The notes below the pieces were generated by a model. The model saw only the letters and a list, made by a program, of their open reading frames with translations, was not told the origin of the DNA and searched no databases. 64,000 nt of DNA from Candidatus Micrarchaeota archaeon (GTDB taxonomy: Archaea; Micrarchaeota; Micrarchaeia; Anstonellales; Bilamarchaeaceae): positions 18,007 through 82,006 of the forward strand of contig CAZKHX010000001.1 in NCBI GenBank assembly GCA_964552755.1, given 5' to 3'. Position 1 is the first letter of the stretch; each line of letters opens with the position of its first letter. The translations under genes and the position numbers were made by a program. Positions 1,635 to 58,233 of this stretch are shown in pieces.

Positions 1635-1656
1635 TCTTGCGGGCATAGGTGAGCCA

Positions 1657-3207: not shown

Positions 3208-3218
3208 ATGGAATTCGC

Positions 3219-7420: not shown

Positions 7421-10025
7421 CTTAAGAGGGTCAGAGTTACCCCCGCTCTTTACCAGCCCTTCTTTCCCTTGGACAGGACTTTCAGGTACTGGCAGTGAGC
7501 AGGCGTCGACCATCGTACGCAGCCTTTCGACCTAGCGATGATCTGTGTTTTTGGTAAACAGTCGCACTCCTCCGGTCTGTGCCACCTGCCCTTTACACAA
7601 AGGCAGGCATCCCTTCTTCCAAAGTTACGGGACCATTTTGCCGAGTTCCCTTGCCTGGGTTATCCTGACACACCTGAGCCTTTTCAGCTAGGGGCACCTG
7701 TACTAGTTCTAGGTACGGTTTCAGAGGATCGGATCAGCTTCTTTTTCACGGGCCACTGGAATCAGCCGAAGAAATTCCCATTAAGGCCTTAATCCCCTTC
7801 TCCTCATAATAAGACTCCGGGGATTTATTGCCCGTAGACAGGGTCTCCCCTGCTCGGCCTATCCAAAAGCGTCGGAAACTGAACTTGCGTTGCCGCATCT
7901 ACCTCCAAAGGGCAGGAATATTAACCTGCTTCCCTTTCCTGCACTAGGAGTTACCTGTGCAGTTAGGATCGCCTAACCCTCAGCTGATTCACATGGCTGA
8001 GGAATCCGTGCCCTATCAGGTGTCCAGGGTTCTCACCTGGATATGCTGCTACTAACGCCAGGATATTCGTACCAGATCGGTCCACAGGAACTCACGCCCC
8101 TGCTTCTCACCAACCCGGTCGCCCCCCTACTCCATAGGCTTTTGGCCTGGGTAAGGTATCGGAATCCGGTTTAGCCCCGTCAATTTTCAGAATCTGCATC
8201 CTCGACTGGTCCGCTATTACGCGTTGTTTAGAGGGTGGCTGCTTCTGAGCCTACCTTCCAGCTGTCTTTGGATAGAGACTCCTTTACGATTAACACTTAA
8301 CCGGAATTTAGGGCCCTTAACCTCACGTACGGTCGTTCCCGTAAGGTTCTACAGGCTTACCCCGTAGAGCCCACCGCCTTCGTCTAAAGAGACAACGGAT
8401 TCGGAGTTTGATAGGAAAGTGACACCTTTCGGAGCCGCTCTTTCCAGTCAGTGCTCTACCCCGCTGTCATCCTCGGAAGACGCTGTGCTGAGACACATTT
8501 CGGAGGGAACCCGCTATTGCTGTGTTCGACAGGACTTTCACCCCTACACCCCGGTCACCCAAGGGGAATATACCACCACTGGTTGCGGGCTTCCACCAGC
8601 CGTCAGGCTGGCTTCACCCTGCCAAGGCGTAGATCACACAGCTTCGGGTCCGTAACATGTGACTGGTCCCCTTTTCAGAGGATGCCCCTCATTGCTTGCG
8701 GGCACTTGCTTTCGCTTCGGCTCTCGCCTTGCCACATGCCATGACTCCCTGGCTCTTGCTTCGAGAAGAAAGATACGACACTGGTTAAACCGCCTCGATC
8801 CCACCCTTGCGGGAGTTCACTTCGGCGGCCCTACCCTTTCGCGCCGTACCTGCCTGTTACCACGTAGTTTCAGGGTCTTTTCGCACCCCTCCCGGGGTCC
8901 TTTTCAGCATTCGCTCGCGCTACTCATTCGCTATCGGTCTAGTGCCCCATATTTAGACTTGGAGATTGGTCTCCCCATATTCCCGTCCTCAAGCCGGAGG
9001 ACGGTACTCTTCATGGATCGCTCCCTTCGCCTTCGCATACGGGACTGTCACCCGCTATGGTATGGCTTTCCATCCAACTTCTGCTCAGCTCAGGGATGCT
9101 CCCCGCCACATCTGCCCTGCATTGCTGCAGGGTATTCGGCTCGGTCTGACCGGCTTTCATTCGCCATTACTAACCGGATCCCAATTGGTTTCTTTTCCAC
9201 CCGGTACTAAGATGTTTCAATTTCCGGGGTTCTTACACCCTCAGCATAACCGAAGGTGCACCGTCAGATCCTAGGATCATAGCTTGCGTGCAGCTACCCT
9301 AGGCGTATCGCCGCTTACCGCGTGACCGTGCGGGCACCAGCCTAGCCATCCACTACGTGGATTGCAACATATCCAAACTTTCTGTTGCCATCTCTTCCTG
9401 AACGTGTTCGCGCATAAAGCGGTCTCAGTAGCTAATGAGCCGCAAAACCTTTTCAGGCCAATGCGCCGCTCTCCCCTGATTGAGGGGACAAGCTAAGTAG
9501 TCTCTTAGTCACCGCGCCATACATGCAGAGGGCGCTCAATAAGAGGTAAGCTAGATATATGAACATACGGCTATTTAAAGGTTTCGTCGGTCCGGAGACG
9601 GGCAGCAGCATTTTTCTTCCTTCTATAACGAAAGCCATTTAACCCCTATTTGCCATAAATAAGCAATTATGCTCGAGCGCATACCCTGATTGTGAAAGTG
9701 GTTGAAAAGAAAGAACACGGGGAGAATGGCGCAGCGAAGAAGCTGGAAGCGCTCGGAGTGGATCCGGCAAGCATATCCCGGAAAAAAGCTTCCATATCCT
9801 ATACTATCCTCGCCCTTTCAAAAGAAGGGGTTGAGCTGCCCATGTCCCTCTCGTTCCCCGATGTGAAGGCGGCAACGGAAGCAAGGCGGGCAGAGCTTGG
9901 GGGCGCGCGCATGGAGATGGCAGGGCGCCTCTGCTTCGGATTCAGCCCGGTGCAATAGGCACATTACAAATTTTTCAGGAAAAACAAAAAACTTAAAAGA
10001 ATCGCGGAATTTATGCTCTCGGTGC

Positions 10026-10306: not shown

Positions 10307-12319
10307 CTATTCTTCCAGGTACATTAAGTAGGTAAAGCCGTCCCTGCTGGAGCCCTCGATGTAGAATTCAAGGAGCGGCAGCCCATAGCCCCTGCCCGCC
10401 TCGAACGGGTTGGCGTTCCCCGGCATCACGAAGACCGCCGGGACCTTCCTTCCTGCCGCAAGGTCATGCTCTCCGGAATACACTTCGAATTTTTCCCTTA
10501 CTCCGAGGTCGCACCCGTCTTCGTAGCACCCGGGGTAATAGTCTGCCTTTATCACAACCGGCCCGTCATCTCCCCCGATGACTATTACCGGCACGGTCGT
10601 TTCCGCCCCGGCAACAACGCCCTTCATCTCATGCGGGCCCTTCACTATGTTCCCGCTGTAGAACGTGGTCCCGGAGACCGCAACCGCCCCGCCGGCGCCG
10701 TTCTCCACTATCAGCTTCGCGCCCACATACCTCTCAAGGGAGCTGTCAAGGTGGTGCGCAAAGGAGAATGGCTTGGGCAGGATGGGCGCAACCGTCCCGT
10801 TGAACACTTCGACGTCATTGTTTGAAACGTTGTAAATCGCAAGCGTGGTTACCGAGAAATCGGAGTTGTTGTAGAGCACTGCATTGGCATCGGCAGTCAC
10901 CGAAACGTCCACGAATTCAGGGGTGGTGACGCTCACCTCAGGCATCTCCGCAATCAGCATCGCCGGGTCCCCGAAGAGCTGGAACTGCATGAGCTGCTCC
11001 TTCCTTTCCGGGGTCATTGATTCGGTAGTTGCAAGCATGCGCTTGTACTGGCTGAGCATGTCCCCGAGGCGGTAGTCGCCCCTCAGGTAGCCATGGTTCC
11101 ACGGGTCAAAGTGCACGGGCGCATGGCTCCTGCTCGCGCCTATGAATGCCACAACGCGGCCGGTTTTGAGAAGCCACTCGGCCAGCACATCACTGCCATG
11201 GTCTATGGCCCCCACCAGGCATGCATATGCAAAATACGCCGGTGGCTTCTCAACCGCCGTACTTGAATAATTCAAGTAGTATCCATATGGCCCCATTTCC
11301 AGGATTCCGTAGGTCCATCCATGGGAAAAGCTGCTTACGAAGTCCGCGCCTTCCTCATTGATGAGGGAGGCAATGTCTCCCCCTTCGTCGGTTGCGCACG
11401 CATGCGGCGCCACATCCTTGACTTCCGGGAGGTTCCCCCGCACGATGCTTTCTTCTATGTTTTCCCTCTCTTCCGTGCTGAATCCATCCTGGCAGTAGCC
11501 TCCCTTGGTGACTAAGTGCACTGGCCGCTCCTGCGGCGCCCAGCCCATAATGGTATCAAGCATGGCCTCAAGCTCCTCAACGGTCTGCACGGGCAGGCGG
11601 CCCACTGCCGTTTCCCCGTCTAGCGAGAACTCGTCCTCCATGAGGCCCATTTCGCCGTAAATGCCGTCTCCATCCGTGTCCCACGTGCCGGAGAAATTGG
11701 CATAGTACTCATCAGCAGGCATGATTGAGTCGTTGTATGACTCCTCCAAGGTACCAAAATCTTCCATCGGCCCTTCGCTATAGTCCGCACCTTCCATGCT
11801 CACATAGCGGGCGTGCACTTCCCACGGCTTGTCGGTTTCGTAATTGGGCCATTCGCCCTGCCGGTAATCGTCAGCGTCAACATCCCCAATAATGAAAAGA
11901 TAATCCATGCCGCCGGAAACCCTGAGCTGTGCAAGGTAATCCCTTATCCTCCCGGGCGGGTCATCCCCGCTCCCTGAGGGGATTTCCTCGACCGTAACCA
12001 CTTCAACCTCAAAGCCTTCCTCGGCCTTTGCATCAACATAGCGCTGGAGGGAACCCTTGAACATTTCGCGCGTGAGCACGACAATCTTTTTTGCCTGCTC
12101 CGGAACCACCGCGGTGATGGGCGGCCTGTTCGCGGTAAAGCCCGGTTGCGGGTCCTTTGGCAAATTCCCGTCCTTGCCGCAGCCCACGAGCCCGCCAACA
12201 ATAATAGAAGCAGTGAGAACCGCTGCGCGGCCGAAAGCCCTTATGCCGCCCGGGCGGCGGTCCGGCTCCCGCTCTGTGCATGGTGCATCGCTGCGTGCCT
12301 TCCTTATGGGGGCCATAGT
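10307..12319 (-). CDS. Secreted lipoprotein with clan CD (gingipain C25/caspase-like) cysteine peptidase-like domain
   Basis: Signal peptide ends in a lipobox-like 'LVGC'. A His-Gly...Ala-Cys dyad ('FSHGW' ... ~35 aa ... 'YACLVGAIDHG') is spaced as in clan CD peptidases. Start is taken at 'MAPIRK'. Confidence 0.45.
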   Translation of the reverse strand, partial: TMAPIRKARSDAPCTEREPDRRPGGIRAFGRAAVLTASIIVGGLVGCGKDGNLPKDPQPGFTANRPPITAVVPEQAKKIVVLTREMFKGSLQRYVDAKAEEGFEVEVVTVEEIPSGSGDDPPGRIRDYLAQLRVSGGMDYLFIIGDVDADDYRQGEWPNYETDKPWEVHARYVSMEGADYSEGPMEDFGTLEESYNDSIMPADEYYANFSGTWDTDGDGIYGEMGLMEDEFSLDGETAVGRLPVQTVEELEAMLDTIMGWAPQERPVHLVTKGGYCQDGFSTEERENIEESIVRGNLPEVKDVAPHACATDEGGDIASLINEEGADFVSSFSHGWTYGILEMGPYGYYLNYSSTAVEKPPAYFAYACLVGAIDHGSDVLAEWLLKTGRVVAFIGASRSHAPVHFDPWNHGYLRGDYRLGDMLSQYKRMLATTESMTPERKEQLMQFQLFGDPAMLIAEMPEVSVTTPEFVDVSVTADANAVLYNNSDFSVTTLAIYNVSNNDVEVFNGTVAPILPKPFSFAHHLDSSLERYVGAKLIVENGAGGAVAVSGTTFYSGNIVKGPHEMKGVVAGAETTVPVIVIGGDDGPVVIKADYYPGCYEDGCDLGVREKFEVYSGEHDLAAGRKVPAVFVMPGNANPFEAGRGYGLPLLEFYIEGSSRDGFTYLMYLEE

Positions 12320-12456
12320 AATACTATTGTGGCTGGAAGTGTTTATAAATGTATTTTTTTGGCAGAAGGTGGTTGTTCGCGCACACCCGTGTTCCCGCCC
12401 GGAAATGGGCAAAAAACCGCAACCTTTATATTACACATCCTTCCCTAAATAACCAT

Positions 12457-13425
12457 ATGGTTTCTGCACTGGACGAACGGCCGCTAATTACCGCCACCTA
12501 CGATGGCGCGTACTTTGACCAGTTCATCGGTAATGCATACAAGACAGAAGGCTACGCGGCAGCACGCGGCTTCTTCGACCTTCTCATCCACAAGGCAAGC
12601 ATGGAGCCGGAGAAGCTCCACCTCGGGGAAGTGGAGAACGGCTGGTATTACATCGCCGCATTCGGGGACACGTTCCTTGACGTTTTTGATGGAGGAGAAA
12701 TTGCGAGGCTTGACACTTCCTTCCGCAGCATAACCGGGATGTCCGACCTTGACGCGAACGACAGCGACCCGCGCGTGGACTTCCTCATGCACTGCATTTC
12801 CAACCTGAATGACATGGATTATTCAGGGCGCCTCATGCTCAACAACCACATGCACCCCGAGGATGATGCAGAGGACATAGGCAGGCTGGGCGAAACCTAC
12901 CCCCGTTGGCTTTCGGAAAATTCGCTGCACATGCTCAGGGAAAACATAGTGATGTTCTACTACCTGATTGATTTGGAGGGAATGAGGCAGTATCTCGAGG
13001 GGAAGATAAAGAGCCTCGATGCGGACGTAATACGCAATTCAAACGAGACGATGCAGAGGCTCATGAACCTGCTGGGCAGAATTCCTCCGGATACAAAAAT
13101 AAAGCGGCTTGCGGAGCAGTCAATCGACTCGATACTGGATGAGATGGACATCGACCCGCAGCTAGTCCTCAATTTCGGCAGGGGCTACGGGGACGACGGC
13201 ATTAGGTTCGTGGTGGGCCTCACCGAGCTCGCCCTGCGCACCGTGCTCTCCGGCTTCACGAAGGAGGCGATGCTCCACTCCCAGATGGAAGAGCTCAGGG
13301 GCGCGGACATGAAATTCATAAGGGGCAGGTTCACGAAGAGGACTTTCCTCGACCGGAAGAGCATTCCCAGGGAAAAGAACCCGGTGCGCATCCCGCGCGA
13401 AGCGGCCGGGAAGCTGCTTGCCTAG
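12457..13425 (+). CDS. Hypothetical protein
   Basis: ORF with TATA-like 'CCTTTATATTA' ~30 nt upstream of ATG at 12457. No recognisable domain. Confidence 0.5.
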   Translation: MVSALDERPLITATYDGAYFDQFIGNAYKTEGYAAARGFFDLLIHKASMEPEKLHLGEVENGWYYIAAFGDTFLDVFDGGEIARLDTSFRSITGMSDLDANDSDPRVDFLMHCISNLNDMDYSGRLMLNNHMHPEDDAEDIGRLGETYPRWLSENSLHMLRENIVMFYYLIDLEGMRQYLEGKIKSLDADVIRNSNETMQRLMNLLGRIPPDTKIKRLAEQSIDSILDEMDIDPQLVLNFGRGYGDDGIRFVVGLTELALRTVLSGFTKEAMLHSQMEELRGADMKFIRGRFTKRTFLDRKSIPREKNPVRIPREAAGKLLA

Positions 13426-13958
13426 GCGAAAAGCGCCGCGCCCAAATACCCGAATATAACATACCTCAGCATGCGCCCAGCCGCGCATGCAACGAAGAAC
13501 TCCCTCTTGGGCATGTTTGCCGCGCCCGCGGCAAGCCCAGCAAGGTCGAAGAACGGGTTCGGGAGGAAAGCAAATACGAAAATGGCGAGCATGTCGTTCC
13601 TCACCATCCACTTCCTGTATTTCCCCAGCATCTTCTGCTTCTCAAGGGTAAGCTCCGTGACGCCTTTCCCGAAAAAGTAGCCGGTGAATTCCCCAAGCGC
13701 GGAGCCGATTCCCGCAATTATGCCCACAATGAACGGATTCAATATGGCGCCCATCGCGAGCACAATCCCCCAGCCGGGCAGGGGTACGAAGATGGTTGCC
13801 GCGGAAAACAGCGAAATCAGGAACACGCCCAAATACCCGTATCCCTCAAACTGCTGGATGTAGCTGCTGAAATAGAGTATTATCCCTGCGACAATGAGGG
13901 CGAAAATTATTTGCAATGCCGCCTGCAGCTTTCCCTCCATGCAGTGGTTTTGGAGCAT
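13422..13958 (-). CDS. DedA/SNARE-associated (TVP38/YqaA) family membrane protein
   Basis: 'NDMLAIFVFAFLPNPFFDLAGLAAGAANMPKREFFVACAAGRMLRYV' matches the DedA-family core. Start approximate. Confidence 0.6.
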   Translation of the reverse strand: MLQNHCMEGKLQAALQIIFALIVAGIILYFSSYIQQFEGYGYLGVFLISLFSAATIFVPLPGWGIVLAMGAILNPFIVGIIAGIGSALGEFTGYFFGKGVTELTLEKQKMLGKYRKWMVRNDMLAIFVFAFLPNPFFDLAGLAAGAANMPKREFFVACAAGRMLRYVIFGYLGAALFA

Positions 13959-13990
13959 TCCTTTATATTTGTATTCGGAGAATCTCTCCC

Positions 13991-15142
13991 ATGTTGCCTT
14001 CCAGAAGAAGCGATAAGGTAAGGTATGCAATCAGGGACATCGCCGCGGAGGCGCGGCTACTCGAACTTGAAGGCAAGGAGATAATCCACCTCAACATAGG
14101 CGACCCGTGCGAGTACGATTTCGACCCGCCTGCGCGCATAAGGGAAGTGGCGAAGGAGGCGCTCTCCCAGAGGTATGCGGCTTATGCTCCCTCGGGGGGC
14201 GACGAGGACCTCCGCGGGCTGGTCGCGAAGATGGAAGGCGTCACAAAGGAGGACGTATTCGTCACCACGGGCCTCAGCGAAGGAATAGACTTCGCAATGA
14301 GCATACTGCTAGACCCCGGGGACGAGATGCTGCTCCCGAACCCGGTCTACCCTCTGTACAGCTCGAAGGCCGAGATGCTGGACGCGAAGCCGGTCTTCTA
14401 CGACTGCGACGGGGAATGGGTGCCCATACTCGAAGACATAAGGAAGAAAATCACCGGTAAAACAAGGGGCATAGTGCTCATCAGCCCGAACAACCCCACG
14501 GGCGCAATCTGGCCCGAAAAGACCGTGAAGGGAATATGCGACATCGCCTCCGAGCACAAGCTCCCCGTATTTGCGGACGAGGTGTACGACCAGATAGTGT
14601 TCGAGGGCTCGTACACGAACGCCCGGAAGGTGCGCGGCGACGCGGTCGTCATGGGGGGGAATTCCATTTCCAAGAACTACTCCTACCCCGGCGCCCGCGT
14701 GGGCTACGTTGCATTCCACGGCGACGCGGAGAAGAAGCTTACCGATGCGTTCCTGCGCATGTGCAACCAGCGCCTTTCGGTGAACTGGGAAATGCAGAGG
14801 GCGGCAATCGCCGCATTCAGCGAGCCCGCGGACCCGGCGTACATTGAAAAATTGAAGAAAAGGCGCGACCTGCTCTACAAATTAATTGAGGAAACAGAAG
14901 GCCTTTCTTCGCCCAAGCCCAACTCCGCGATGTACGCGATGGTCAAGGTGGAGGGCTACCCGGGCAATGACTGGGAATTCGCAAGGCAGCTCATGCGCGA
15001 GGCAGGGGTGCTGGTCGCGCCCGGCTCCGCGTTCCTCAAAGGGAAAGAGGGCGTCTATTTCCGCACCACTTTCCTGCCCACTGAGGAAAAGCTCCAGCAG
15101 GCATACGAGAACATAGGGAAGTTCCTCAAAAGCAAGGCGTAG
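13991..15142 (+). CDS. Class I/II PLP-dependent aminotransferase (AlaT/AspC-like)
   Basis: 'IHLNIGDPCEYDFDPP', the PLP-lysine motif 'SISKNYSYPGARVGY', and overall length match this family. Start taken at 'MLPSRR'. Confidence 0.85.
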   Translation: MLPSRRSDKVRYAIRDIAAEARLLELEGKEIIHLNIGDPCEYDFDPPARIREVAKEALSQRYAAYAPSGGDEDLRGLVAKMEGVTKEDVFVTTGLSEGIDFAMSILLDPGDEMLLPNPVYPLYSSKAEMLDAKPVFYDCDGEWVPILEDIRKKITGKTRGIVLISPNNPTGAIWPEKTVKGICDIASEHKLPVFADEVYDQIVFEGSYTNARKVRGDAVVMGGNSISKNYSYPGARVGYVAFHGDAEKKLTDAFLRMCNQRLSVNWEMQRAAIAAFSEPADPAYIEKLKKRRDLLYKLIEETEGLSSPKPNSAMYAMVKVEGYPGNDWEFARQLMREAGVLVAPGSAFLKGKEGVYFRTTFLPTEEKLQQAYENIGKFLKSKA

Positions 15143-15193: not shown

Positions 15194-17911
15194 CTAAAGT
15201 CGCTCCCCGTATTCGGTGATGAAGCGCTCGTACTCCGCAAGCAGCCCCGCAGTAATCGAGGGCCGCATGCGCGAGATTATGTCAACAACTTTTTCAGTGG
15301 TCAGCTTCGGCTCCTTGCCCGTTGAGCTCTCCCTGAGCAGGTACATGCGCGCCTGCTGGGCGACCGCAGCGATGTCCGCCCCGGAGAATCCCTCGGAAAC
15401 CTTCGCGAGCTTCTTCAGGTCCAGCCCCGTGGCGAATTCGCCGAGGTGGATGTTGAAGAGCTGCTCGCGCCCGGTGGAGTCCGGCGCGTGCACATAAATT
15501 ATCTTGTCAAAGCGGCCGGGCCTCAGGATTGCGGGGTCGAGCATCTCCGGCTTGTTCGTTGCGCCCACAATCATCACGCCCTCCATTCCCTTTATGCCGT
15601 CCATCTCCACAAGGAACTGGCCGGTGATTTCAGCGCGCCCGATATCCCTAGAAGGCGCAACCGTTTCAATCTCATCTATGAAGATCACGGAAGGCGGGTT
15701 CTCCCGCGCCCGGTTGAAGGTTTCCTTGATTACGTTCACCGCATGGGTGTAGCCGCGTTTCATCAATTGCGCACCGCCCAGCGAAAGGAACGTGATGTCC
15801 AGCTCGTTGGAAGCTGCGCGGACAACAAGCGTCTTGCCGCACCCGGGCGGGCCGAACATCAAAATCCCCTTGGTGGGCTTCACCCCGTACCTCTTCACCA
15901 GCTCGGGGTGCAGCAGCGGCGTCTCAATCGCCTCGCGGAAAGAGCGCTTCACGTCCTCCAAATCCGCAACATCGTTCCAGCCGATTTTCTTCTCCGCCTC
16001 TTTCTCTTTGGGCGCCTTCTCCGCTTCGCGCTCCGCAACCCCTGCGACCGAGCGCTCGAAATCGGTCCTGAACTCATCGTAATCCTCAATCTGCGCAAAA
16101 GTGGTGCTGGGCTTGGTGTGCTCAAGCACAGCGCGCAGCAGATCCATGGTGACCGGCACTACCTTTCCGGTCTTCTTTGCCTGGCCTGCAGCGAGCCCCA
16201 CCGCCTCCTTCACTACGTTTGCGATGTCCGCGCCGGAGTAGCGGTCGCTCTCAGCCGCCAGCTTCCTGTAATCGACCTTTTTCCCGAGTATGCCCTTCTT
16301 TGCGAGCCCTTCCATGTGCACCTTGAATATCGCCTCCCGCGCCTCCTTGTCCGGAAGGTGCATGTACACTATCTTGTCAAAGCGGCCGGGCCTCATGAGC
16401 GCCGGGTCCAGCTTGTTCGGCACATTGGTTGCGCCAACCACGATCACCGGCTTCTTGTTGTCGGTTTTCAGGCCGTCCATTTCCTGGAGGAGGATGCTTA
16501 GCACGCGCGGCCCCACGTCATCTGAAGAGGCTGCCATGCGCTTCTTCCCCAGCGCATCGATTTCATCGAAGAAAAGTATCGCCGGCGCGCTTTCCCGCGC
16601 CTTTGCGAATATCTCGCTTATGTTCTTCTCGCTCTCGCCCACCCATTTGGAGAGGATATCCGAGCTTTTCACATAGTACATGCGGAAGTCCAGCTCCTTT
16701 GAAAGGGCGCGCATGAGCATCGTCTTCCCGGTGCCGGGAGGCCCGAAGAGCAGTATCCCCGAAGGCGGCTTAATCCCGTATGCGCTCGCAAGCTCAACGT
16801 TCTGCAGGGGCAGCACTATGGAGCTGCGCAGCTCATCCTTCACGTCATCGTAGCCGCCCACATCGTCAAGCCCCTCCTCGCCCCCTCCGATGGACATGTC
16901 CTGCAGCCCAAACTTCCCGAATGATTTCATTTTCTCCTTCGCGCTTATCTTGCGCTCGCGGGATACGTGCGCCCCGAGAAAGTCGGCCGCGCCGACCACC
17001 GCAACCGCAAGCAGGAAATAGGGGAACATCATCCAGCTGAATGCGAAGCCCACAAAGGAAAGAAGGAAATATGCAAGGGGCACCAGCAGTATCGCAAGCG
17101 CGGATTTCGTCTGGTTCCACCTCCCCTTCCTGAATACGCGGGGGAGCATCCCCACAACGTAGAGCGCCGCACCCCACACCATCAACTGCACAATGCCGCC
17201 GTCCATGAACAGCAGCGTGACCGAATTGGAGAATATCTTCCCGAGCACCGCCCACACATGGGTTGCGGAGGCGAAGTTGAGTATTGAGCCCAGCGCAGCC
17301 CCGATTTCGGAGCCGAGGGCGCCCAGCTCAACCGGCCCGGCCCTGAGCGCAAGCTGGCCCACCGCGGGCTCATATGCGGAAAGCGTGACCGGCAGGAATG
17401 CGTTGTTCGGCACCAGCCAGAGCGAAGAGAGCAGCAGTATGATGAACACCGCGGGCACGGAAATCAGCACGCTCTTGCGCGAGCCGAAATGGAAGCTGCC
17501 CAGCAGCATGAGCAGGTAAACCATCCCGCCGAGCATTGCAAAGGGTGCGGCGGCAAAGGGCAGGAGGCAGATTACTTCCAGCAGCGCGATTATCCCCCAG
17601 TTGTCGAACATCTCGAAGAAGACAATTGCGAGAAGGAGGAGCCCCAGCCAGCCCCATACGGTGGACTGGAACGCGAATGCGGGGATTGCGAGTATCCATG
17701 TCGCGCCCACCCCGAGGGGCGGCTTCTTCATTGCGATTGCGCCGCAGATGAGCGCGAGGACGAATGCAACCGCAATGGGGTAGAATGGGATTGCGGTGAG
17801 GAGCGCAAGCGCCCCAAGGAATACGAGTATTGCATTCCAGAAGGATTCGCTCTCCTGGAGCTGCTGCGTGTAGGCCACTATCCTTTGCTGAGTGAGCGTC
17901 GCCCCGGCCAT
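15194..17911 (-). CDS. Membrane-anchored tandem AAA+ ATPase (Cdc48/VCP-like D1+D2 with ~330-aa polytopic N-terminal domain)
   Basis: Two Walker A motifs ('GILLFGPPGTGKTML', 'GILMFGPPGCGKTLV'), each followed by Walker B 'DEID/DEIE' and SRH regions. The N-terminal third has ~8-9 predicted TM helices. Confidence 0.85.
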   Translation of the reverse strand: MAGATLTQQRIVAYTQQLQESESFWNAILVFLGALALLTAIPFYPIAVAFVLALICGAIAMKKPPLGVGATWILAIPAFAFQSTVWGWLGLLLLAIVFFEMFDNWGIIALLEVICLLPFAAAPFAMLGGMVYLLMLLGSFHFGSRKSVLISVPAVFIILLLSSLWLVPNNAFLPVTLSAYEPAVGQLALRAGPVELGALGSEIGAALGSILNFASATHVWAVLGKIFSNSVTLLFMDGGIVQLMVWGAALYVVGMLPRVFRKGRWNQTKSALAILLVPLAYFLLSFVGFAFSWMMFPYFLLAVAVVGAADFLGAHVSRERKISAKEKMKSFGKFGLQDMSIGGGEEGLDDVGGYDDVKDELRSSIVLPLQNVELASAYGIKPPSGILLFGPPGTGKTMLMRALSKELDFRMYYVKSSDILSKWVGESEKNISEIFAKARESAPAILFFDEIDALGKKRMAASSDDVGPRVLSILLQEMDGLKTDNKKPVIVVGATNVPNKLDPALMRPGRFDKIVYMHLPDKEAREAIFKVHMEGLAKKGILGKKVDYRKLAAESDRYSGADIANVVKEAVGLAAGQAKKTGKVVPVTMDLLRAVLEHTKPSTTFAQIEDYDEFRTDFERSVAGVAEREAEKAPKEKEAEKKIGWNDVADLEDVKRSFREAIETPLLHPELVKRYGVKPTKGILMFGPPGCGKTLVVRAASNELDITFLSLGGAQLMKRGYTHAVNVIKETFNRARENPPSVIFIDEIETVAPSRDIGRAEITGQFLVEMDGIKGMEGVMIVGATNKPEMLDPAILRPGRFDKIIYVHAPDSTGREQLFNIHLGEFATGLDLKKLAKVSEGFSGADIAAVAQQARMYLLRESSTGKEPKLTTEKVVDIISRMRPSITAGLLAEYERFITEYGERL

Positions 17912-17948
17912 GCTAGAGTAAAAGGTGGAAACTTTTTATACGTGCGCC

Positions 17949-18518
17949 TCAGATGCGCTTGAAGGCGGCGACACCCGCGGCCGTCTTGCGGAACCTGTAG
18001 CCCATCTTCATGAGCACCTTCTCGGTCTTTGTGCCCCTCTGCACAACTATGTCCGCCAGCTGCCCGTCGGGGTTTGTGGGCGAGGTAATGGTCACTGCGA
18101 ACTCGAATTCCGCCTCCTTCCCGCGCTTCTCCCTGCGGTCAACGAGCAGCTCGCGCAGGCCCTTCCCCTCATAGGGAAGCAGCACCGCATCATCCTCAAG
18201 GAAAACCGCGTTCTCCTCCCCCTCGACTATCCCCCCCGAGTCCTCATCAAAGTGCACCCCCCATGCGAGGCCCACTGCAACCAGCATCCTGCCGACAAAT
18301 GCGCCGTAGCTCATGCCGAGCCCAAGCACGTCCCCCACTTCTTTTTCGGTAACGGAGAAGAGACACTTCCGCATGATGCGCGAAACCTCTTCCGTATCAG
18401 AGGGCTCAAGGCGCTTGATTTCCGCCTCCTCGAATTCCAAGGGCGCATGGAACTTCTTCTTTTTCTCTTCCTTTTCCTCCTCTTTCTCGTCCACTACGGG
18501 CCCCTTGAACTCAGACAT
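17949..18518 (-). CDS. Hypothetical protein (acidic, K/E-rich N-terminus)
   Basis: ORF in operon context between the Zn-ribbon gene and the AAA gene. No domain recognised. Confidence 0.45.
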   Translation of the reverse strand: MSEFKGPVVDEKEEEKEEKKKKFHAPLEFEEAEIKRLEPSDTEEVSRIMRKCLFSVTEKEVGDVLGLGMSYGAFVGRMLVAVGLAWGVHFDEDSGGIVEGEENAVFLEDDAVLLPYEGKGLRELLVDRREKRGKEAEFEFAVTITSPTNPDGQLADIVVQRGTKTEKVLMKMGYRFRKTAAGVAAFKRI

Positions 18519-18857
18519 TCACACAAACCTCGTCCTGCATACCGGGCAGCGCGTCATGTACCCGCCCATCTCGTAGCCGCATATCGGGCAGCGCCACACC
18601 GTTTTCTTTGCGCGCTCCATCTCCGCCTTGAAGCTGAAGCCGCACTTTTCGCACACATTCGCGTCAAGGTCGTTGAGCTCCTTGCACTTTGGGCACTTCT
18701 TTTTGAACATGGATTTTATGCGGACCCCGCAGCTCGGGCAGCGCTCCATGTCCAGCGTGACCTGCGCCCCGCAGCTCGGGCACTTGAACTTCTTCCCGGC
18801 GAGGGTTGATTTGCCCTTGCCGCCCACCGCGCCCTTCAGCACGTCTAGTATGCCCAT
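18519..18857 (-). CDS. Triple zinc-ribbon protein
   Basis: Three CxxC...CxxC pairs: 'CPSCGAQ..CPSCGV', 'CPKCKEL..CEKCGF', 'CPICGYE..CPVCRT'. It abuts the upstream gene. Confidence 0.6.
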   Translation of the reverse strand: MGILDVLKGAVGGKGKSTLAGKKFKCPSCGAQVTLDMERCPSCGVRIKSMFKKKCPKCKELNDLDANVCEKCGFSFKAEMERAKKTVWRCPICGYEMGGYMTRCPVCRTRFV

Positions 18858-19870
18858 CTTGCCACCAGCGGCGCAAGCAGTATCAGAAGCGAAACGCAGC
18901 AGACCTTCTTCTCTTCGGGCACTGGCCTGTTGAACGGGTCGAAGCCTTCATCCCCGCCGCCCCCTTCAAGGGAGCCGCTGCCCGGGCTACCCGTTTCCTT
19001 CTCCACGGCGGGCAGCTCCTCCGGGAGCTCCCCCCCGCACTCATTCTCCATCGCGGCGTTCACCACCGAGAGGTCCAAATCGTAATCGCCCGCCTCCAGG
19101 TCGGATTCGAGCGAGGCGATTGCCGCGTCAACCGTGGAGCTGGAGCAGGACCTGTCGCTCTTCACCTTGAGCACGCCGTCAATTTTTTTCACCGCGGCCT
19201 CGCATGCGGCCTTGCCCTCCGAATATTCGCGCGCATCCTCGAGCGCGGGGCCGAGCAGGCTGGCCGCGCTGCTCACCTTGCACTGGCTCAAGAATGTGCG
19301 GGCGCTGCCCGCCTTGCCCGAAAGGCTTTCCACATCAAAGGGGCAGCATGCTCCGCTCGTGGTGCAGTAGTCCCCGCCCTCGAGCCCGGAGTAGAGCGCC
19401 TCCAGCTCGTCCGCATCCTCGATTGCCTGCGATTCGGAAGATGAGGGGTAATGGGTGAGGTTGTCCAGCTCTATAATATAGTAATAGTCGTCCCCGAGCT
19501 CGAACTTGAGCACTTCCACCCCGTCGAGGGTTTCCTCGGGCTCGCCCCCGAACTGGAAGGGCATCTCAAGGTCCTCGTTGTCCCCACACACGCTCCCGTA
19601 GGAGGAAATGCTGCACTCTCCGATTTCCACCCATCCCCCTGTTTCCCGGTCCATGTAGTAGAAGGTTGCGGTTTCGGATTCGCCGTACGGGTTGATTATC
19701 CATATTTCGAAGCTCACTATGGAGGGGCCGCTCGAGCCGCAGTTGGGTATCCTGTAGCCCGGGTGCACGCCCCTTACCTCTACGTCTGAATCGTCCATCT
19801 CGGTTGCGGCAAAAGCAAAGCCGGAAAGCATCAGGAAGCCTGCCAGCAGCAGGAACAGCGGCCTTTTCAT
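18845..19870 (-). CDS. Secreted Cys/acidic-rich protein with N-terminal signal peptide and C-terminal hydrophobic anchor
   Basis: 'MKRPLFLLLAGFLMLSGFAFA' is a signal peptide. The C-terminus 'KKVCCVSLLILLAPLVARWAY' is hydrophobic. First gene of the minus-strand operon. Confidence 0.6.
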   Translation of the reverse strand: MKRPLFLLLAGFLMLSGFAFAATEMDDSDVEVRGVHPGYRIPNCGSSGPSIVSFEIWIINPYGESETATFYYMDRETGGWVEIGECSISSYGSVCGDNEDLEMPFQFGGEPEETLDGVEVLKFELGDDYYYIIELDNLTHYPSSSESQAIEDADELEALYSGLEGGDYCTTSGACCPFDVESLSGKAGSARTFLSQCKVSSAASLLGPALEDAREYSEGKAACEAAVKKIDGVLKVKSDRSCSSSTVDAAIASLESDLEAGDYDLDLSVVNAAMENECGGELPEELPAVEKETGSPGSGSLEGGGGDEGFDPFNRPVPEEKKVCCVSLLILLAPLVARWAY

Positions 19871-19922
19871 GCGTCAGGATTAACCGGCAACCCTTTTTAT
19901 CTTTTTCCTCGAAAGTGGCGCA
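19870..19922. promoter_or_regulatory. Short divergent intergenic region with AT-rich TATA-like element between the two operons of the membrane-system block
   Basis: 'CCTTTTTATCTTTTT' lies ~30 nt upstream of ATG 19922. The same element read on the other strand precedes the minus-strand operon start (19870). Confidence 0.4.
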
Positions 19923-21187
19923 TGCGAAAGGCGCTTCTGCTACTGGCAGTGATTGCCCTGTGCCATGCAGGCGGCGCCTCCCCCAAAGTAGACCTCCCTG
20001 AGCTCGGGTTCGTATTCGTTGGCGCGGCAGTGCTCCTTTCCACGGCATTCATCGCGATAGCGTACATGGTCTCCAGCGCGTTCCAGAACCCGCAGGCGAT
20101 TGCATGGTCGAAGAACCAGCTGCGGGAACTGATTGTCGGGGTGTTCATAGTGGTACTGGTTGTCGGCGCGTACGTGGCGGCGAACGAGCTCATCTCCAGC
20201 ATGACCGGCTACCCCAACGCGGTGGAGCTGGGGGAGGACAACATCCGCGATATACTCGCCCCGATAGAAAAGATATACAAGAAGGTGGGCGAGGCCTATT
20301 TCACGCTCGGCCAGTACCAGGGCTCTTCCACCTCATACGTCTCTGGCAACCTCGGCTACATATACTATCATGAGTCCAAGAGCCCGTATTACGGGGTGAG
20401 CCCGGTGATGGGCAGCCTCAACCAGCAGACCTACCAGCTCACGATGCAGATACTCTCCTTCCGCTTCCTGCTTGTGCTTCTCCAGTACATAGACGTAGTG
20501 GTGCCGAATTTCCTCCTTCCGCTGGGCATGGCCTTCCGCGTGTTCCCGTTCACGAAAAAGATAGGGAACACGCTGATTGCGCTCGCTCTCGGCGCGCTCT
20601 TCATGCTGCCCGCGTCCCTGCTTGTGGTGGACGAGATGCGGAAGGCAATCACGTTCCAGCATGTGGACGCGGCCGCGCTCATGAGCTTCCAGGTGAGCAG
20701 CGCCATGGGCGAGATGACCGGCAGCGCCACAGGAGATGCGCTCTACAGCCTCCTCATATGGCCCTACCTGGTCGCAAAGGAAACCTGCGAAATAGCGACA
20801 GTCCGCACGTTCTTCTCTTTGGGGGAAATAGTGTGGGGCGTCATATATGCGACGCTTGCCGCGATAAAGTGCCTCGCCGGCTATGCGGCCTGCTGGGTGA
20901 TTGAGTTCAACTTCTTCGTGTTCTTCCTGTGGCCGTGGATAATGTTCTTTGCGCAGAACATACTCGCGGTGCTTGTCGCGATAGCCGGCACCCCGTCAGC
21001 GGGGTTCATCTACGACCTGCTGGTCGCGGACATAGTAAAATACCTATTCCCAGCGGTGAGCGAGCTCACCACCTTCTCCATAATGTCAATAATAGTGATA
21101 GCGGTAATCACGTTCACAGGAACGCGCTCGATATCTGTCGCCCTGGGAGGCGAGTACGCCCTTTCAGGGCTTTCGAGGCTGATATGA
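19922..21187 (+). CDS. Polytopic membrane protein, paralog M1 of a 6-member tandem family
   Basis: Signal-like N-terminus, multiple TM helices, core motif 'LLPLGMAFRVFPFTKKIGNTLIALALGALFMLP', C-terminus '...LSGLSRLI'. Stop overlaps the next start (ATGATGA). Confidence 0.75.
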   Translation: MRKALLLLAVIALCHAGGASPKVDLPELGFVFVGAAVLLSTAFIAIAYMVSSAFQNPQAIAWSKNQLRELIVGVFIVVLVVGAYVAANELISSMTGYPNAVELGEDNIRDILAPIEKIYKKVGEAYFTLGQYQGSSTSYVSGNLGYIYYHESKSPYYGVSPVMGSLNQQTYQLTMQILSFRFLLVLLQYIDVVVPNFLLPLGMAFRVFPFTKKIGNTLIALALGALFMLPASLLVVDEMRKAITFQHVDAAALMSFQVSSAMGEMTGSATGDALYSLLIWPYLVAKETCEIATVRTFFSLGEIVWGVIYATLAAIKCLAGYAACWVIEFNFFVFFLWPWIMFFAQNILAVLVAIAGTPSAGFIYDLLVADIVKYLFPAVSELTTFSIMSIIVIAVITFTGTRSISVALGGEYALSGLSRLI

Positions 21188-22074
21188 TGAGGGCCGCGCT
21201 CTTCCTCCTGCTGCTTGCGCCGCTGTGCTCCGCGGCAACCTGCGACTTCGCGAGCGACGTGTTCGCGGATGCAATCCCGATAATCGCCGCTGCGATACTT
21301 TTCTCAGTGGCGCTTGCCGCAATAATGTACATGGCAGGCAGCGTGCTGCACGACCCCGGCCTGCACGTGGGCAGCAAGGACCTGCTGTTCCAGGCATTCG
21401 TCTCCATACTGCTAGTGCTCTTCATACAGGGGCTGTTCACCGGGCTGTGCCTCATGACGGCAGATTTCCTGGGAGGGCAGGATGCCCTCTCCACCGCAAT
21501 CTACGATCTGAGGCAGCTCAAGATTGAGGGTGCGCAGATACTCACCAACCTGATGAAGAAGGTGGTGAACGAGAAGTTCACCGCGGCGTATTTCTCCGGC
21601 TACTACATCCCGCTGAGCGGGGGCGAGACGTTTTTCCCCTACGGGGAGCACAACGCATATGCGCGCCATGCGGAAATCGTCTTCGACATGGCGATGATCG
21701 GCTACGTGAGCGTGGGCATACAGAGCATGATACTGAAAGGGATACGGGACCTCACGCTCGCGATACTGCTCCCGTTCGGGCTGATACTGCGCTCCCTCCC
21801 CAAGCTCAGGGAGGGCGGCAACATCCTCATCGCGCTCGCTCTCGCATTATATGTGGTATTGCCGTTTGCGTATGCTGTGAATTCCACCGCTGCGGACATC
21901 ATCCCTGATTTCTGCGACGGCGATGACGGGGTGTTCGGCGCATGCGGGGATGGGTACGGGTTCGGCACGGTCGGGCTCTACCTGTTCCGTACGGTATTCC
22001 TACCGAACCTCGCGCTGGTGATTTTCGCAACTTCCGCAGGCGCGCTGGTGAAAGTCGCGAAGGTGATTCCATGA
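21184..22074 (+). CDS. Polytopic membrane protein, paralog M2
   Basis: 'MMRAALFLLLLAPLCSA' N-terminus; core motif 'LLPFGLILRSLPKLREGGNILIALALALYVVLP'. ATGA overlap with M3. Confidence 0.7.
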   Translation: MMRAALFLLLLAPLCSAATCDFASDVFADAIPIIAAAILFSVALAAIMYMAGSVLHDPGLHVGSKDLLFQAFVSILLVLFIQGLFTGLCLMTADFLGGQDALSTAIYDLRQLKIEGAQILTNLMKKVVNEKFTAAYFSGYYIPLSGGETFFPYGEHNAYARHAEIVFDMAMIGYVSVGIQSMILKGIRDLTLAILLPFGLILRSLPKLREGGNILIALALALYVVLPFAYAVNSTAADIIPDFCDGDDGVFGACGDGYGFGTVGLYLFRTVFLPNLALVIFATSAGALVKVAKVIP

Positions 22075-23879
22075 ACAGGCGCATAGCGGCATTGCTGCTC
22101 CTCGCGATATTCCTTTTCGGGTGCGCCACGGAAGGCACTGCGACCGAAAGCGCGATAATCGAGGCGCAGGAGCGCGACACGCTCGTAGGCAACATGGTCG
22201 CGAACTGGGAGCTCTTCGCGGTAATGCTGATGCTCATCTCCGTGGGCCTTGTCGCAATGGCGTATGCGATTTCCATCTCCTTCAACCTCCCCGACCTGAG
22301 GGCATGGGCGGACGTTGAGCTCTCGGAAGTGTTCACCACCGCGCTCATAGTGATTTTCATAATCGCGATACTGGTATTCGTGGATGTTACTGCCGGCGCG
22401 ATGGTTGCAAGCGAGCCGATGTTCGCAGGGACGTGCGACCCGATGCTGAATCCCGAGGCCGGGCATGCCTTCTGCCCGTCCCTGCTCGCAAAGGAATACA
22501 TCGGCCAGTACGTGGATGCGGCGGAAACGCTTTACGAAAAGCTCACCAAGCGCGCGATAAACAAGGCGCAGGATGCGACCTACTCCTCCGGGCTCGGCAT
22601 CTCTTACCAGATTTACCTCTACCTCTCCATCTCATGGAGGAACCAGCCGTGGGAGATGATGAATGTGGAGCGGCTGGAGCAGCTAATCAATTTCACCGGC
22701 ATGGTGCTGGGCGCGCTGCACACGCAGAGGTTCCTGATAGATTCCATGTCGCTCGGCTTCGGGCCGATTGCCCTGCTCCTTGGCATAGTGTTCCGCTCGT
22801 TCTTCGTAACGCGCAAGATGGGCGGCCTGCTGATGGCATTTGGAATTGGGTTCATGCTGGTCTACCCCGCGTCGTATGCGCTAGGCTGGTTCACGCTTAA
22901 CGTTGCGATTTACGGAGTGGAGAACGTTGCGAGCGGCCCCACGGGCACATGCCCGCAGTCCTGCCTGCAGGCCCCTCCTTCCGGCTTCTACACCGACACG
23001 CTGGAGCCCGCGGCGTACAATGACGTTTATGCGGCCGCACTGGAAGAGGCGGACGGGGATGCGGAAGCGGCAAATGATGTCCTCCGCGGGTTCTTCAATG
23101 GCTCTACCCAGCGCCTCGGGGGCATTGAGTCGTGCGAATACTACGGCAATGAAGATGCGCTGAACTGCAGCTCCGCATGCAGGAGCCTCCCCTACCCGAT
23201 GCAGTCCTCGGGCTGCGCCGCGCGGGAGGCGGCATGCGCGGAGATGCCCGATGCGTGCATAATTTCGCACTATTACGATTCCGCGGACCCGGTGCTCCAG
23301 AACATAGATGCCGCAGCGGAGGTGAAGGCATGCCCGGCGGACTGCCAGCCCCTCGTGCCGATGAAGAGGGACTGCATCGAGGAATACGGGTATTCATGCC
23401 CGTCCCAGTGCAGGTACGTGATACTGGATACCGGGACCGGCGCGACAAAGACCGAGCCGGGGTGCTGGTGCACCGAATATTACCCAACTAATGCGCTCGA
23501 GCTATGGAGCGGAGCCCGCGCGGAGGAGAGCTGCGTGTACATAATTCCGGAAAAGGTCTATGACCAGCCGACCTACTGCAATGACTGCAGCTACACACTC
23601 GATCCCGGGCTTGCGTACAAGCCGCAGGTGTTCGTGGACTGCACTTCCCTTTGCGGCTCATCCACCAACCCCACCATAAACACCGAGGACCCGGCAACCG
23701 CTTCGAACAAGGTGGACGGGTTCATAGGGAACTCGGACATCAAGTCCGCGGCGAAGCTGGTGGTCCCCGCGTTCCTGCTGCCGCTGTTCAACCTCGCGGT
23801 AACCTTCATATTCATACAGACGCTTTCCCCGATGCTCGGCGGGGACATCGACATACCGGGCATGATGAGGCTGATATGA
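22071..23879 (+). CDS. Polytopic membrane protein, paralog M3, with ~290-aa Cys-rich extracytoplasmic insertion
   Basis: 'MNRRIAALLLLAIFLFGC' lipobox-like N-terminus; core motif 'IALLLGIVFRSFFVTRKMGGLLMAFGIGFMLVYP'; >25 Cys in the 22900-23760 segment; C-terminus '...IPGMMRLI'. Confidence 0.7.
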   Translation: MNRRIAALLLLAIFLFGCATEGTATESAIIEAQERDTLVGNMVANWELFAVMLMLISVGLVAMAYAISISFNLPDLRAWADVELSEVFTTALIVIFIIAILVFVDVTAGAMVASEPMFAGTCDPMLNPEAGHAFCPSLLAKEYIGQYVDAAETLYEKLTKRAINKAQDATYSSGLGISYQIYLYLSISWRNQPWEMMNVERLEQLINFTGMVLGALHTQRFLIDSMSLGFGPIALLLGIVFRSFFVTRKMGGLLMAFGIGFMLVYPASYALGWFTLNVAIYGVENVASGPTGTCPQSCLQAPPSGFYTDTLEPAAYNDVYAAALEEADGDAEAANDVLRGFFNGSTQRLGGIESCEYYGNEDALNCSSACRSLPYPMQSSGCAAREAACAEMPDACIISHYYDSADPVLQNIDAAAEVKACPADCQPLVPMKRDCIEEYGYSCPSQCRYVILDTGTGATKTEPGCWCTEYYPTNALELWSGARAEESCVYIIPEKVYDQPTYCNDCSYTLDPGLAYKPQVFVDCTSLCGSSTNPTINTEDPATASNKVDGFIGNSDIKSAAKLVVPAFLLPLFNLAVTFIFIQTLSPMLGGDIDIPGMMRLI

Positions 23880-24922
23880 TGAGGAAGCTGCTGCTGTTCG
23901 TGCTGCTGGCCGTTGCGGCCTGCTGGGCTGCCGAGCCCTATGAATGGCAGGCGCTCTCCATCATGGCGGTGTTCGTCGCGTTCATAGTCCTGGTAATCCT
24001 GTACATGCTCACCTACCTTGCGAATTCGCCGGAAATGCGCACAATGGTGAGCAGCGAGATGTACCAGGTGATATTCACCCTTTTCATAATCGCGATATTC
24101 ATCGGGGTGGAGGCGTTCTCCGCGGAAGTGATCGGGCCGGCTTTCGGCCTCGATTTCGGGGCGGCGGAGGGCCAGAACCAGATAGACTACGCACTGGAGG
24201 TCACGGGCGGCCCGGACGCATCCGACGGCCTCATCGCCTACCAGTGGGGCGAGATGCTCTCCTTCGCAAACAACGTGGTCTCGCCGCTGGGCACGCTTTC
24301 CGCGCTGAGCGCAAGGTGCTCGTTCCTCGGGTTCTCCTTCGGGTTCGCGGGCTGCGCAGGGCTTGCGGTGCCGTTCGCCTCCGCGTCCCTCGCAATGCGC
24401 GTGCTCTCAACCTCGCTGCTTATGCTCAATTCACAATACTTCCTGCTGAAGCTCGCGCAGGGCTTCTTCTTCCCGGTGCTGCTGCCGGTGGGGCTGTTCC
24501 TGCGCTCGTTCCACGTCACTAGGGGCGCGGGCGCCCTCCTCATTGCAATTGCCGCGGCATTCTATTTCATGTACCCGGTCGGCGTGCTCGTGACAAAGGG
24601 GATGGCGGACATGGTGGACTACCCGGACCCGGACATCCCGCACTTCGAGGCGCCGGACCCGACCGAGGCAGGGGAAATCCTTGGCGTGGACCTGCCCCCG
24701 GACGTCGACTGCAACCCCTTCGACAATGACTACAAATACACGAAAAGCGCGATGAACAAGCTGCTTGATGACGATTTCCTGCAGCCCATGCTGTTCCACT
24801 TCATGATTGCCGGCCTGCTGAATACTGCCCTGAGCCTTATGATAGCCCTCTCCGTTGTCGGGGGGCTTGCGAGGCTGTTCGGCGCGGAGGTTGACGTTTC
24901 CGCGCTTGCGAGGATGATATGA
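23877..24922 (+). CDS. Polytopic membrane protein, paralog M4
   Basis: 'MMRKLLLFVLLAVAACWA' N-terminus; core 'LLPVGLFLRSFHVTRGAGALLIAIAAAFYFMYP'; C-terminus '...SALARMI'. ATGATGA overlaps at both ends. Confidence 0.75.
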
Positions 24923-25932: not shown

Positions 25933-25940
25933 GTGATGAG

Positions 25941-31108: not shown

Positions 31109-31118
31109 GGGTGATTTA

Positions 31119-45783: not shown

Positions 45784-45889
45784 TGGGGCTGTAGGGATTT
45801 GAACCCTAACATGCAGGTTTCTTGAGAGAACTCCGCCGAAGCGGATCTCGCCTGGAGCCTGCCGCGCTACCTGGTTACGCCACAGCCCC
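45784..45889 (-). tRNA. tRNA-Trp(CCA) with ~33-nt intron
   Basis: Acceptor GGGGCUG/CAGCCCC, D-stem GCGU/GCGC, anticodon stem GCAGG...CCUGC, loop 'CUCCAG^intron^A', T-arm UAGGG-UUCAAAU-CCCUA. The intron is a hairpin 'GGAGAUCCGC-UUCG-GCGGAGUUCUC' with no obvious box C/D. Confidence 0.75.
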
Positions 45890-58205: not shown

Positions 58206-58233
58206 AGGGAACCATCGGAAAAAAGGTTAAAAG

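Follow-up and report, generated by a model that had tools for sequence, protein, structure and literature searches.

Background

AAA unfoldases that are anchored in the membrane play a central part in the quality control of membrane proteins. Known examples are FtsH of bacteria and organelles, Msp1, and Cdc48 working with Derlin/Hrd1 in endoplasmic-reticulum-associated degradation (ERAD). Archaea are thought to rely on the membrane-bound LonB and, to our knowledge, they lack FtsH. Here we describe a gene found in the window, that is, the whole stretch of 64,000 nucleotides of contig CAZKHX010000001.1 (Candidatus Micrarchaeota archaeon) that was analysed. The gene (15194..17911, minus strand; 905 amino acids plus stop in a single open reading frame) encodes a tandem AAA ATPase that is fused to a large membrane domain, and we refer to its product as the fusion protein.

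Each of the closest described systems shares a part of this architecture. FtsH, Yme1 and AFG3L2 have, like the fusion protein, an N-terminal membrane anchor, a short linker and a classic AAA ring, together with a presumed role in the extraction of membrane proteins. The last membrane helix of the fusion protein ends at about residue 311 and the AAA part starts at about residue 350, which puts the anchor directly before the ring, as in FtsH. On the other hand, FtsH has two transmembrane helices, one AAA ring and an M41 protease, whereas the fusion protein has about ten helices and two rings, and Pfam finds no peptidase (M41) domain in it. Msp1/ATAD1 and Bcs1 are likewise N-terminally membrane-anchored AAA machines that act on membrane proteins; for example, Msp1 extracts tail-anchored proteins by threading. 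These, however, are eukaryotic proteins with a single transmembrane helix, a single AAA module and no conserved polytopic domain. Cdc48, p97 and VAT share with the fusion protein the tandem classic AAA modules and their lids, the Vps4_C-like helix and, in a minority of the new family, an HbYX tail. Their N-terminus is a double-psi barrel plus a beta-clam (PF02359/PF02933), whereas the fusion protein has a ten-helix membrane domain at this place.

Serek-Heuberger et al. are said to have described, in 2009, the MBA proteins as two N-terminal transmembrane helices plus one AAA module, restricted to Sulfolobales. On this description, MBA (two helices, one AAA module) would differ from the fusion protein (about ten helices, two AAA modules). 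Among archaeal membrane-bound AAA proteins, only one group had been named before, the MBA ("membrane-bound AAA") of Sulfolobales (PMC3493965), and plant Spaf-like proteins with a C-terminal transmembrane helix are mentioned elsewhere (PMC5070193). We found no description of the fusion family in the searchable literature on Micrarchaeota with AAA, Cdc48 or proteasome, or in the papers on ARM-1. The membrane-anchored AAA unfoldase is a known type of machine; what is new is the joining of a tandem ring to a large, conserved and structurally unmatched polytopic domain, in one DPANN lineage.

Architecture of the fusion protein

The reading frame runs without interruption from its ATG start through 905 codons to the stop at 15194-15196, and all parts of the gene given below lie on the minus strand. 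Pfam assigns to the protein two AAA modules (PF00004, combined E 1.6e-76), two lids (AAA_lid_3, PF17862) and a Vps4_C-like terminal helix. Residues 1-339, which hold the membrane domain and the start of the linker (16895..17911), are without any Pfam match. A basic cytosolic linker (residues 318-349, 16865..16960), delimited from alignments and from a model helix at 319-338, connects the last membrane helix to the first AAA module, D1. This membrane-proximal ring (residues 350-625, 16037..16864; PF00004 and AAA_lid_3) contains the Walker A motif GPPGTGKT (residues 390-397, 16721..16744) and a pore loop 1 of the canonical aromatic-hydrophobic-Gly type, S-K-W-V-G-E-S-E (residues 421-428, 16628..16651). 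The second module, D2 (residues 637-905, 15197..16003; PF00004, AAA_lid_3 and Vps4_C), has the Walker A motif GPPGCGKT (residues 687-694, 15830..15853). Its pore-loop-1 position reads M-K-R-G-Y-T-H-A and is non-canonical (residues 717-724, 15740..15763), and the module closes with the Vps4_C-like C-terminal helix and the end EYGERL. The first-pass annotation of this DNA had already named a tandem AAA protein with these two Walker A motifs, and Pfam and the sequence agree with it.

Potentially, such a fusion could be an artefact of annotation or assembly, in which a membrane-protein gene and a Cdc48-like ATPase gene had been wrongly joined and the N-terminal region were really a separate upstream gene. 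We found nothing in favour of this. The merging of two genes by frameshift or misassembly was excluded, because homologs from independent assemblies align collinearly across the domain junction: the frame is continuous, and more than 120 clusters of homologs follow it through the junction including the FGKFG linker. The same fusion is present in assemblies from JGI, ENA, NCBI and Logan. Among the 120 best homologs, the number of residues before the first Walker A motif is 380-400 in every case, apart from one protein where a spurious extension raises it to 454. We regard the chance of an artefact as negligible.

Homologs and phyletic range

A full-length search of a collection of 5.8 billion sequences returned more than 120 homolog clusters that have the full architecture. 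Their members are 888-957 amino acids long, cover 99-100% of the query and are 49-70% identical to it; a protein from a JGI metagenome (P0001) is 100% identical to that of the window. Almost all named sources are Micrarchaeota, Micrarchaeia, Bilamarchaeaceae or Anstonellales. In the NCBI taxonomy, Micrarchaeia belong to the phylum Microcaldota of the kingdom Nanobdellati (DPANN). The databases name these homologs only as "AAA family ATPase", "SpoVK/Ycf46/Vps4 family" or "transitional endoplasmic reticulum ATPase". Genome scans with the full-length alignment gave at least seven and at least nine family loci, and the matches listed were mostly generic AAA genes. One full-length member (L014) lies on a contig labelled Candidatus Marsarchaeota, which is the sole label other than Micrarchaeota among the family loci that were fetched; the contig may be mis-binned or the gene may have been transferred.

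We also built a HMMER profile of the N-domain only, from which all AAA sequence was excluded, and searched it against 1.84 billion (1.84e9) representatives. It matched only 76 clusters, and nearly every full-length match carries one or two AAA modules downstream. Since a profile without AAA sequence still finds AAA-bearing proteins, the membrane module and the AAA motor are an obligate pair. Among the matches are divergent Micrarchaeota forms of about 930 amino acids, for example ARM1_0067 of the cultivated ARM-1 (hhalign 98.8%, 291 columns), and at least one apparently complete form with a single AAA module (P0159). The short matches that have no AAA module are fragments, most of which resemble truncated contigs.

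Rare long forms from Thermoplasmatota have the first four helices in common with the family, including the motifs IPFYP, AYKxP and AYQSP (probability 97.7%). In the proteins labelled Thermoplasmatota or Thermoplasmata (P0186, P0188 and P0193), the shared helices are preceded by a signal peptide, a domain of about 330 amino acids that is probably outside, and one extra transmembrane segment. None of the relatives whose domains we checked adds a protease or any other informative catalytic domain. Members of the Thermoplasmatota are the hosts of some Micrarchaeota, and horizontal transfer between the two groups is a possible origin of the shared membrane module.

The ATPase rings

Conservation of single residues was counted over the 102 intein-free members of the family. 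In both rings, the Walker A motif, Walker B (DE), sensor-1 (TN) and the two arginines in the second region of homology show no variation (102/102); in D1 this includes sensor-1 T495-N496 and the arginine fingers R507/R510. Judged by these residues, both rings are catalytically complete. The Cys of the D2 Walker A motif is not general, this position being T in 75 and C in 27 of the members.

The two pore loops differ. In D1, pore loop 1 follows the pattern S-x-W-[YVF]-G-E-S-E, with W423 and G425 invariant in all 102 sequences. The D2 equivalent, whose position was set by inspection against the SKWVGESE of VAT D2 in the alignment, is M-K-[KR]-G-Y-[TS]-x-A; G720 is invariant and Y721 is found in 90 of the 102, and the aromatic-hydrophobic-Gly order is missing. 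Because only D1 has a canonical pore loop, the membrane-proximal D1 would be the gripping ring. This asymmetry, with D1 canonical and D2 degenerate, is the reverse of that in eukaryotic p97.

The D1 pore loop is also the site of a recurrent intein. In 19 homologs an intein sits exactly at E426|S427, and in 18 of these it is the only one; the exception, P0126, carries another intein immediately ahead of the D1 Walker B motif. The inteins are about 490 amino acids long, two mini-inteins measure about 160-180 amino acids, and the site is identical in all. The intein-bearing homologs are P0016, P0023-P0030, P0032, P0075, P0079, P0081, P0082, P0094, P0097, P0098, P0106, P0112 and P0126. Since inteins typically home to indispensable, invariant sites, their recurrence at the D1 pore loop marks this site as critical.

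The family C-terminus is nearly invariant, F-x3-Y-G-E-R-[RKH], and the protein of the window ends in YGERL. The HbYX pattern is [LVIMGAPFYW][FY]x (PMC3493965), and we found no such motif at the C-terminus of the window protein. However, 9 of 120 members (about 8%) carry an extra tail of about 15-20 residues that does fit the pattern, with the endings GMYR in six members, HYR in two and PMFG in one (P0053, P0056, P0061, P0063, P0066, P0079, P0089, P0092 and P0120; loci L036, L040 and L042). These tails resemble the [ST]MYR ending of the soluble Cdc48 that Micrarchaeota themselves possess. Direct docking to the 20S proteasome is plausible for this minority, going by the tail sequences, and not for the window protein.

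Relation to Cdc48

The first-pass annotation had called the protein Cdc48-like, and this holds only loosely. Searched against VAT, Cdc48 and p97 in the PDB, the two modules give E values from about 1e-107 to 1e-114, and both are nearest to the D2 module of these proteins. The best match of the fusion D2 is the D2 of VAT/Cdc48 (E 2e-114). The best match of the fusion D1 is likewise the D2 module of VAT/Cdc48/p97, with 200 bits against VAT D2 and 162 against VAT D1. The whole protein scores 476.3 bits with the NCBIfam model for CDC48 (TIGR01243), well below its cutoff of 802.65, and the best stretch pairs the fusion D1 with the D2 part of the model. The AAA part reaches 397.7 bits with the NCBIfam model for FtsH (TIGR01241), also below the cutoff (600).

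We calculated a neighbour-joining distance tree with 100 bootstraps from the modules of the family and of canonical Cdc48; no other AAA families were included as outgroups. The family D1 and D2 paired with the D1 and D2 of Cdc48 in 0/100 replicates, and the family was split from canonical archaeal Cdc48 in 100/100. In three Micrarchaeota genomes there is also a distinct soluble Cdc48, which has the usual N-domain and ends in the HbYX motif [ST]MYR. Because the module tree splits the two and a separate soluble Cdc48 is present, the fusion appears, as far as a simple neighbour-joining tree can tell, to be an additional and distinct tandem-AAA lineage rather than a Cdc48 with a swapped N-domain.

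The membrane domain

The membrane domain comprises about 315 amino acids. Its hydropathy profile is an unbroken series of hydrophobic segments from residue 22 to residue 317, after which a strongly basic stretch follows. An AlphaFold2 model (AF2, built from a 24-member alignment; pLDDT 91.3, pTM 0.87) predicts a cytosolic amphipathic helix (6-20), ten membrane-length helices (22-40, 46-62, 64-82, 84-119, 124-142, 144-165, 215-235, 239-259, 266-285 and 295-311) and the linker helix. A polytopic domain had been anticipated in the first-pass annotation; its count of 8-9 helices was slightly low, as hydropathy and AF2 give 9-10 over residues 22-311.

In 24 diverse members the N-domain is 36-54% identical to that of the window (median 42%). 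Twenty-three of its positions are invariant in these members, including W25, F43, P45, Q82, S83, F99, W105, P118, F119, F142-G143-S144, S162, D237, W246 and L250; E100 is mostly conserved and Q242 is near-invariant. The linker has conserved K329, K333-F-G335 (FGKFG; K-x3-K-F-G) and D338, and its region 312-345 contains on average 6.8 lysines and arginines. With its invariant polar and aromatic residues, the N-domain is conserved to a degree that far exceeds the needs of a simple anchor. The polar residues that lie in or at the ends of membrane helices (Q82/S83, E100, S162/S163, D237, Q242) might form the wall of a hydrophilic path or of a site that binds substrate.

One alternative is that the protein is a general cytosolic unfoldase or segregase which is merely tethered to the membrane. 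In that case the membrane domain would serve for anchoring or regulation, and the ATPase would work on soluble proteins or complexes at the membrane surface, such as factors of cell division or of envelope biogenesis. The AAA modules are indeed of a standard kind and closest to Cdc48/VAT, and we could recognise neither a substrate channel nor a catalytic motif in the membrane domain, which speaks for this alternative. However, ten helices with conserved polar residues (Q82, S83, E100, S144, S162, D237 and Q242) are well over what an anchor requires, a soluble Cdc48 is already there for cytosolic work, and the membrane module almost never occurs without an AAA module. We find this alternative unlikely.

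We found no family or solved structure that matches the whole domain. Pfam, searched at E<=1 over the window protein and the 24 members, assigns no family to it. Foldseek found nothing in the PDB (best E 0.7, TM-score about 0.2), that is, no counterpart of the whole domain among solved structures, and no structural likeness to Rhomboid/Derlin, YidC/Oxa1, TatC or SecY was found. The N-domain merits a family definition of its own for annotation.

A partial and weak likeness to the S-components of energy-coupling factor (ECF) transporters (ThiT, RibU, BioY, FolT and PanT) was seen, over about 140 of 339 residues with 9-16% identity. This raises the alternative of an AAA-powered transporter, whose membrane domain would either bind a small molecule or lipid in the manner of an S-component or form a polypeptide channel, and which would serve import, perhaps of host-derived material. 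The likeness, however, covers only a part of the domain, is absent in Foldseek and is gone in a second model made of residues 1-172. We found no ECF T or A components near the gene; what the fusion protein shares with the S-components is a resemblance only, which we keep as a weak lead. We also know of no AAA-driven transporter of small molecules. We consider a transporter quite unlikely.

Topology in the membrane

The AAA part must lie in the cytoplasm. In the Thermoplasmatota relatives the arrangement of domains likewise places the beginning of the conserved module at the cytoplasmic face, and for these two reasons the membrane domain is predicted to cross the bilayer in an even number of passes, ten being the simplest, with its two ends in the cytoplasm. 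A positive-inside analysis of the 102 sequences shows loops rich in lysine and arginine at 61-66, 141-148 and 258-269. The region 166-214 is net acidic, and residues 166-238 have about four times the density of N-x-S/T sequons found in the AAA part. This composition suggests that residues 166-238 are outside. On the other hand, that arrangement needs the segment 84-119 to cross the membrane twice, whereas AF2 draws it as a single 36-residue helix and lets 215-235 span the membrane. The sequence pattern and the AF2 model conflict over 84-119 and 166-238.

A candidate membrane-protein extractor

The reading to which we tentatively give preference, with slightly less than even confidence, is that the fusion protein is an extractor or dislocase of membrane proteins: a double-ring (type II) classic AAA+ unfoldase without a protease of its own. 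We prefer it because a conserved, obligate membrane module adjoins the N-face of a ring that is competent for threading, with another active ring below it, and because part of the family is equipped for docking to the 20S proteasome. The first-pass annotation had proposed a membrane-embedded unfoldase or extractor by analogy to FtsH and Msp1, which have a single AAA domain, and our results fit this proposal: both rings are catalytically complete, D1 has a threading loop, and the fusion is found throughout the lineage.

Threading from the N-face to the C-face has been established for Cdc48, VAT, Msp1 and FtsH/Yme1, and this polarity, which in the fusion protein would carry chains from the membrane to the cytoplasm, also favours the extractor. 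For the fusion protein we infer the formation of a hexamer, the direction of threading, the class of substrate and the downstream fate. If it assembles like other classic AAA proteins, it would be a hexamer whose six subunits bring together sixty membrane helices around or beside the mouth of the D1 pore, with the pore directly under the membrane on the basic linker of about 35 residues. The substrates would most likely be membrane or membrane-associated proteins. The Trp-containing pore loops of D1 would grip a substrate, and ATP hydrolysis in both rings would pull the chain out of the bilayer into the cytoplasm, where it would be released to cytosolic proteolysis. In the HbYX-tailed members (about 8%) the chain might instead be passed directly to a docked 20S proteasome. 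Cdc48 in ERAD, FtsH and Msp1 do a similar job; the fusion would differ in that the membrane module for recruitment and dislocation belongs to the same polypeptide as the motor, and in that no protease is built in.

In a more far-reaching version, which we think quite improbable, the hexamer is a self-contained retrotranslocon: the ring of sixty helices would itself be the path of the polypeptide, and the double AAA ring would pull chains inward from the membrane or from outside. If this were true, we would be looking at an archaeal counterpart of the ERAD dislocation machinery built from one kind of polypeptide. In these obligate symbionts it might then import host-derived polypeptides via cell-cell bridges or nanotubes and feed the proteasome in the HbYX members.

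A tandem-ring unfoldase that is hard-wired to a large membrane module, conserved and structurally undescribed, would be a third design for extraction from the bilayer. As a single polypeptide it is well suited to cryo-electron microscopy. The near-exclusive, lineage-wide conservation in Micrarchaeota makes the protein a candidate signature machine of host-dependent DPANN archaea, and the HbYX-tailed subset suggests that the proteasome may be recruited directly to an archaeal membrane.

Genomic context

The fusion gene is the last of four minus-strand genes, the others encoding a 341-residue protein, a Zn-ribbon protein of 112 residues and a protein of 189 residues. Divergent from them runs a plus-strand array of eight proteins that have no Pfam family, two of which exceed 1300 amino acids; the 421- and 645-residue array proteins are paralogs of each other. 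The array is conserved across Micrarchaeota loci (window 17949-35156; L001 12695-22694; L007 13504-22673), and its partners on one strand are the 189-residue protein, a double-Zn-ribbon protein and a protein of about 340 residues. The gap between the stop of the 189-residue gene and the ATG of the fusion gene is 37 nt. It contains a TATAAAAA box centred about 25 nt 5' of the ATG (17933..17940, minus strand), which from its consensus spacing is probably the TATA box of the gene's own archaeal promoter and would give a leaderless or short-leader transcript.

We compared 15 neighbours of the window gene with 22 family loci by tblastn, and clustered the neighbours of 13 loci all against all. The array, the 189-residue gene and the Zn-ribbon gene adjoin the fusion gene in 3 of 22 independent loci, namely the window, L001/L002 and L007, and the latter two (63% and 55% identity) are the closest sampled relatives of the window. 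The AAA gene is inverted in L001 and L007, where it is convergent with the 189-residue gene, whereas in the window the two are co-directional. By tblastn, no array genes were detectable in the other 19 independent family loci, which come from isolate metagenome-assembled genomes and metagenomes; for several, 5-10 kb of sequence is available on either side, with known unrelated genes at the positions in question. In the clustering, which makes no assumption on gene identity, no neighbour family occurs in more than 3 of 13 loci and there is no conserved operon partner. The adjacency of the array is best accounted for by local synteny within the closest subclade.

These observations bear on the suggestion, made in the first-pass annotation, that the ATPase is a motor for the assembly, extraction or secretion of the giant proteins of the adjacent array. 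It is true that in the window, L001/L002 and L007 the array, the 189-residue gene and the Zn-ribbon gene are no more than 2 kb from the AAA gene, and that no array protein has a recognisable ATPase. However, the adjacency is limited to the closest relatives and the orientation is flipped among them. The fusion gene has what is probably a TATA box of its own and no recurrent neighbour. Conservation of the fusion extends across orders of Micrarchaeia and reaches much further than the array can be detected. A role in secretion is also argued against by the fact that the characterised classic AAA motors, in threading from the N-face to the C-face, would move chains into the cytoplasm. We consider it very unlikely that the ATPase energises the array; the fusion is widespread and its linkage to the array is not.

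The genes around the fusion gene are otherwise ordinary chromosomal housekeeping genes. A VTT/DedA-domain membrane protein and an uncharacterised protein of about 355 amino acids adjoin it in the window (12349-14030) and in L003/L004 (L003 12711-14334). In the window, L005 and L013 the fusion gene has a class I/II aminotransferase as neighbour, and we regard these cases as small patches of residual synteny. A block with serine hydroxymethyltransferase, an MscS channel, FtsZ and a pyrroloquinoline quinone (PQQ) beta-propeller lies directly upstream in L001 (2244-9296) and 35-45 kb away in the window (52626-63461); its displacement shows that the surroundings of the locus have been rearranged.

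Other features of the window

The 23S rRNA gene (5788-9376, minus strand) is archaeal, which marks the window as archaeal DNA; it is 3589 nt long, compared with 2987 nt of the model. An open reading frame inside it (6827-7387, minus strand) encodes 186 amino acids with a LAGLIDADG_1 homing-endonuclease domain (E 1.9e-24), and the gene probably holds an rRNA intron with a homing endonuclease. A tRNA found by Rfam at 45784-45889 (minus strand; 106 nt, 54 bits) was not reported by ARAGORN and is probably an intron-containing archaeal tRNA.

At 183-4781 (plus strand) there are three tandem paralogous genes for proteins of 483, 516 and 520 amino acids. Nothing can be recognised in them except a C-terminal mobile domain of PEP-utilising enzymes (PF00391), and their N-terminal parts of about 400 amino acids have no Pfam match. 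Finally, the gene at 10307-12412 (minus strand) encodes a 701-residue protein with a peptidase C25 (gingipain-like) domain (E 8.7e-36), which is unusual in a reduced DPANN genome.

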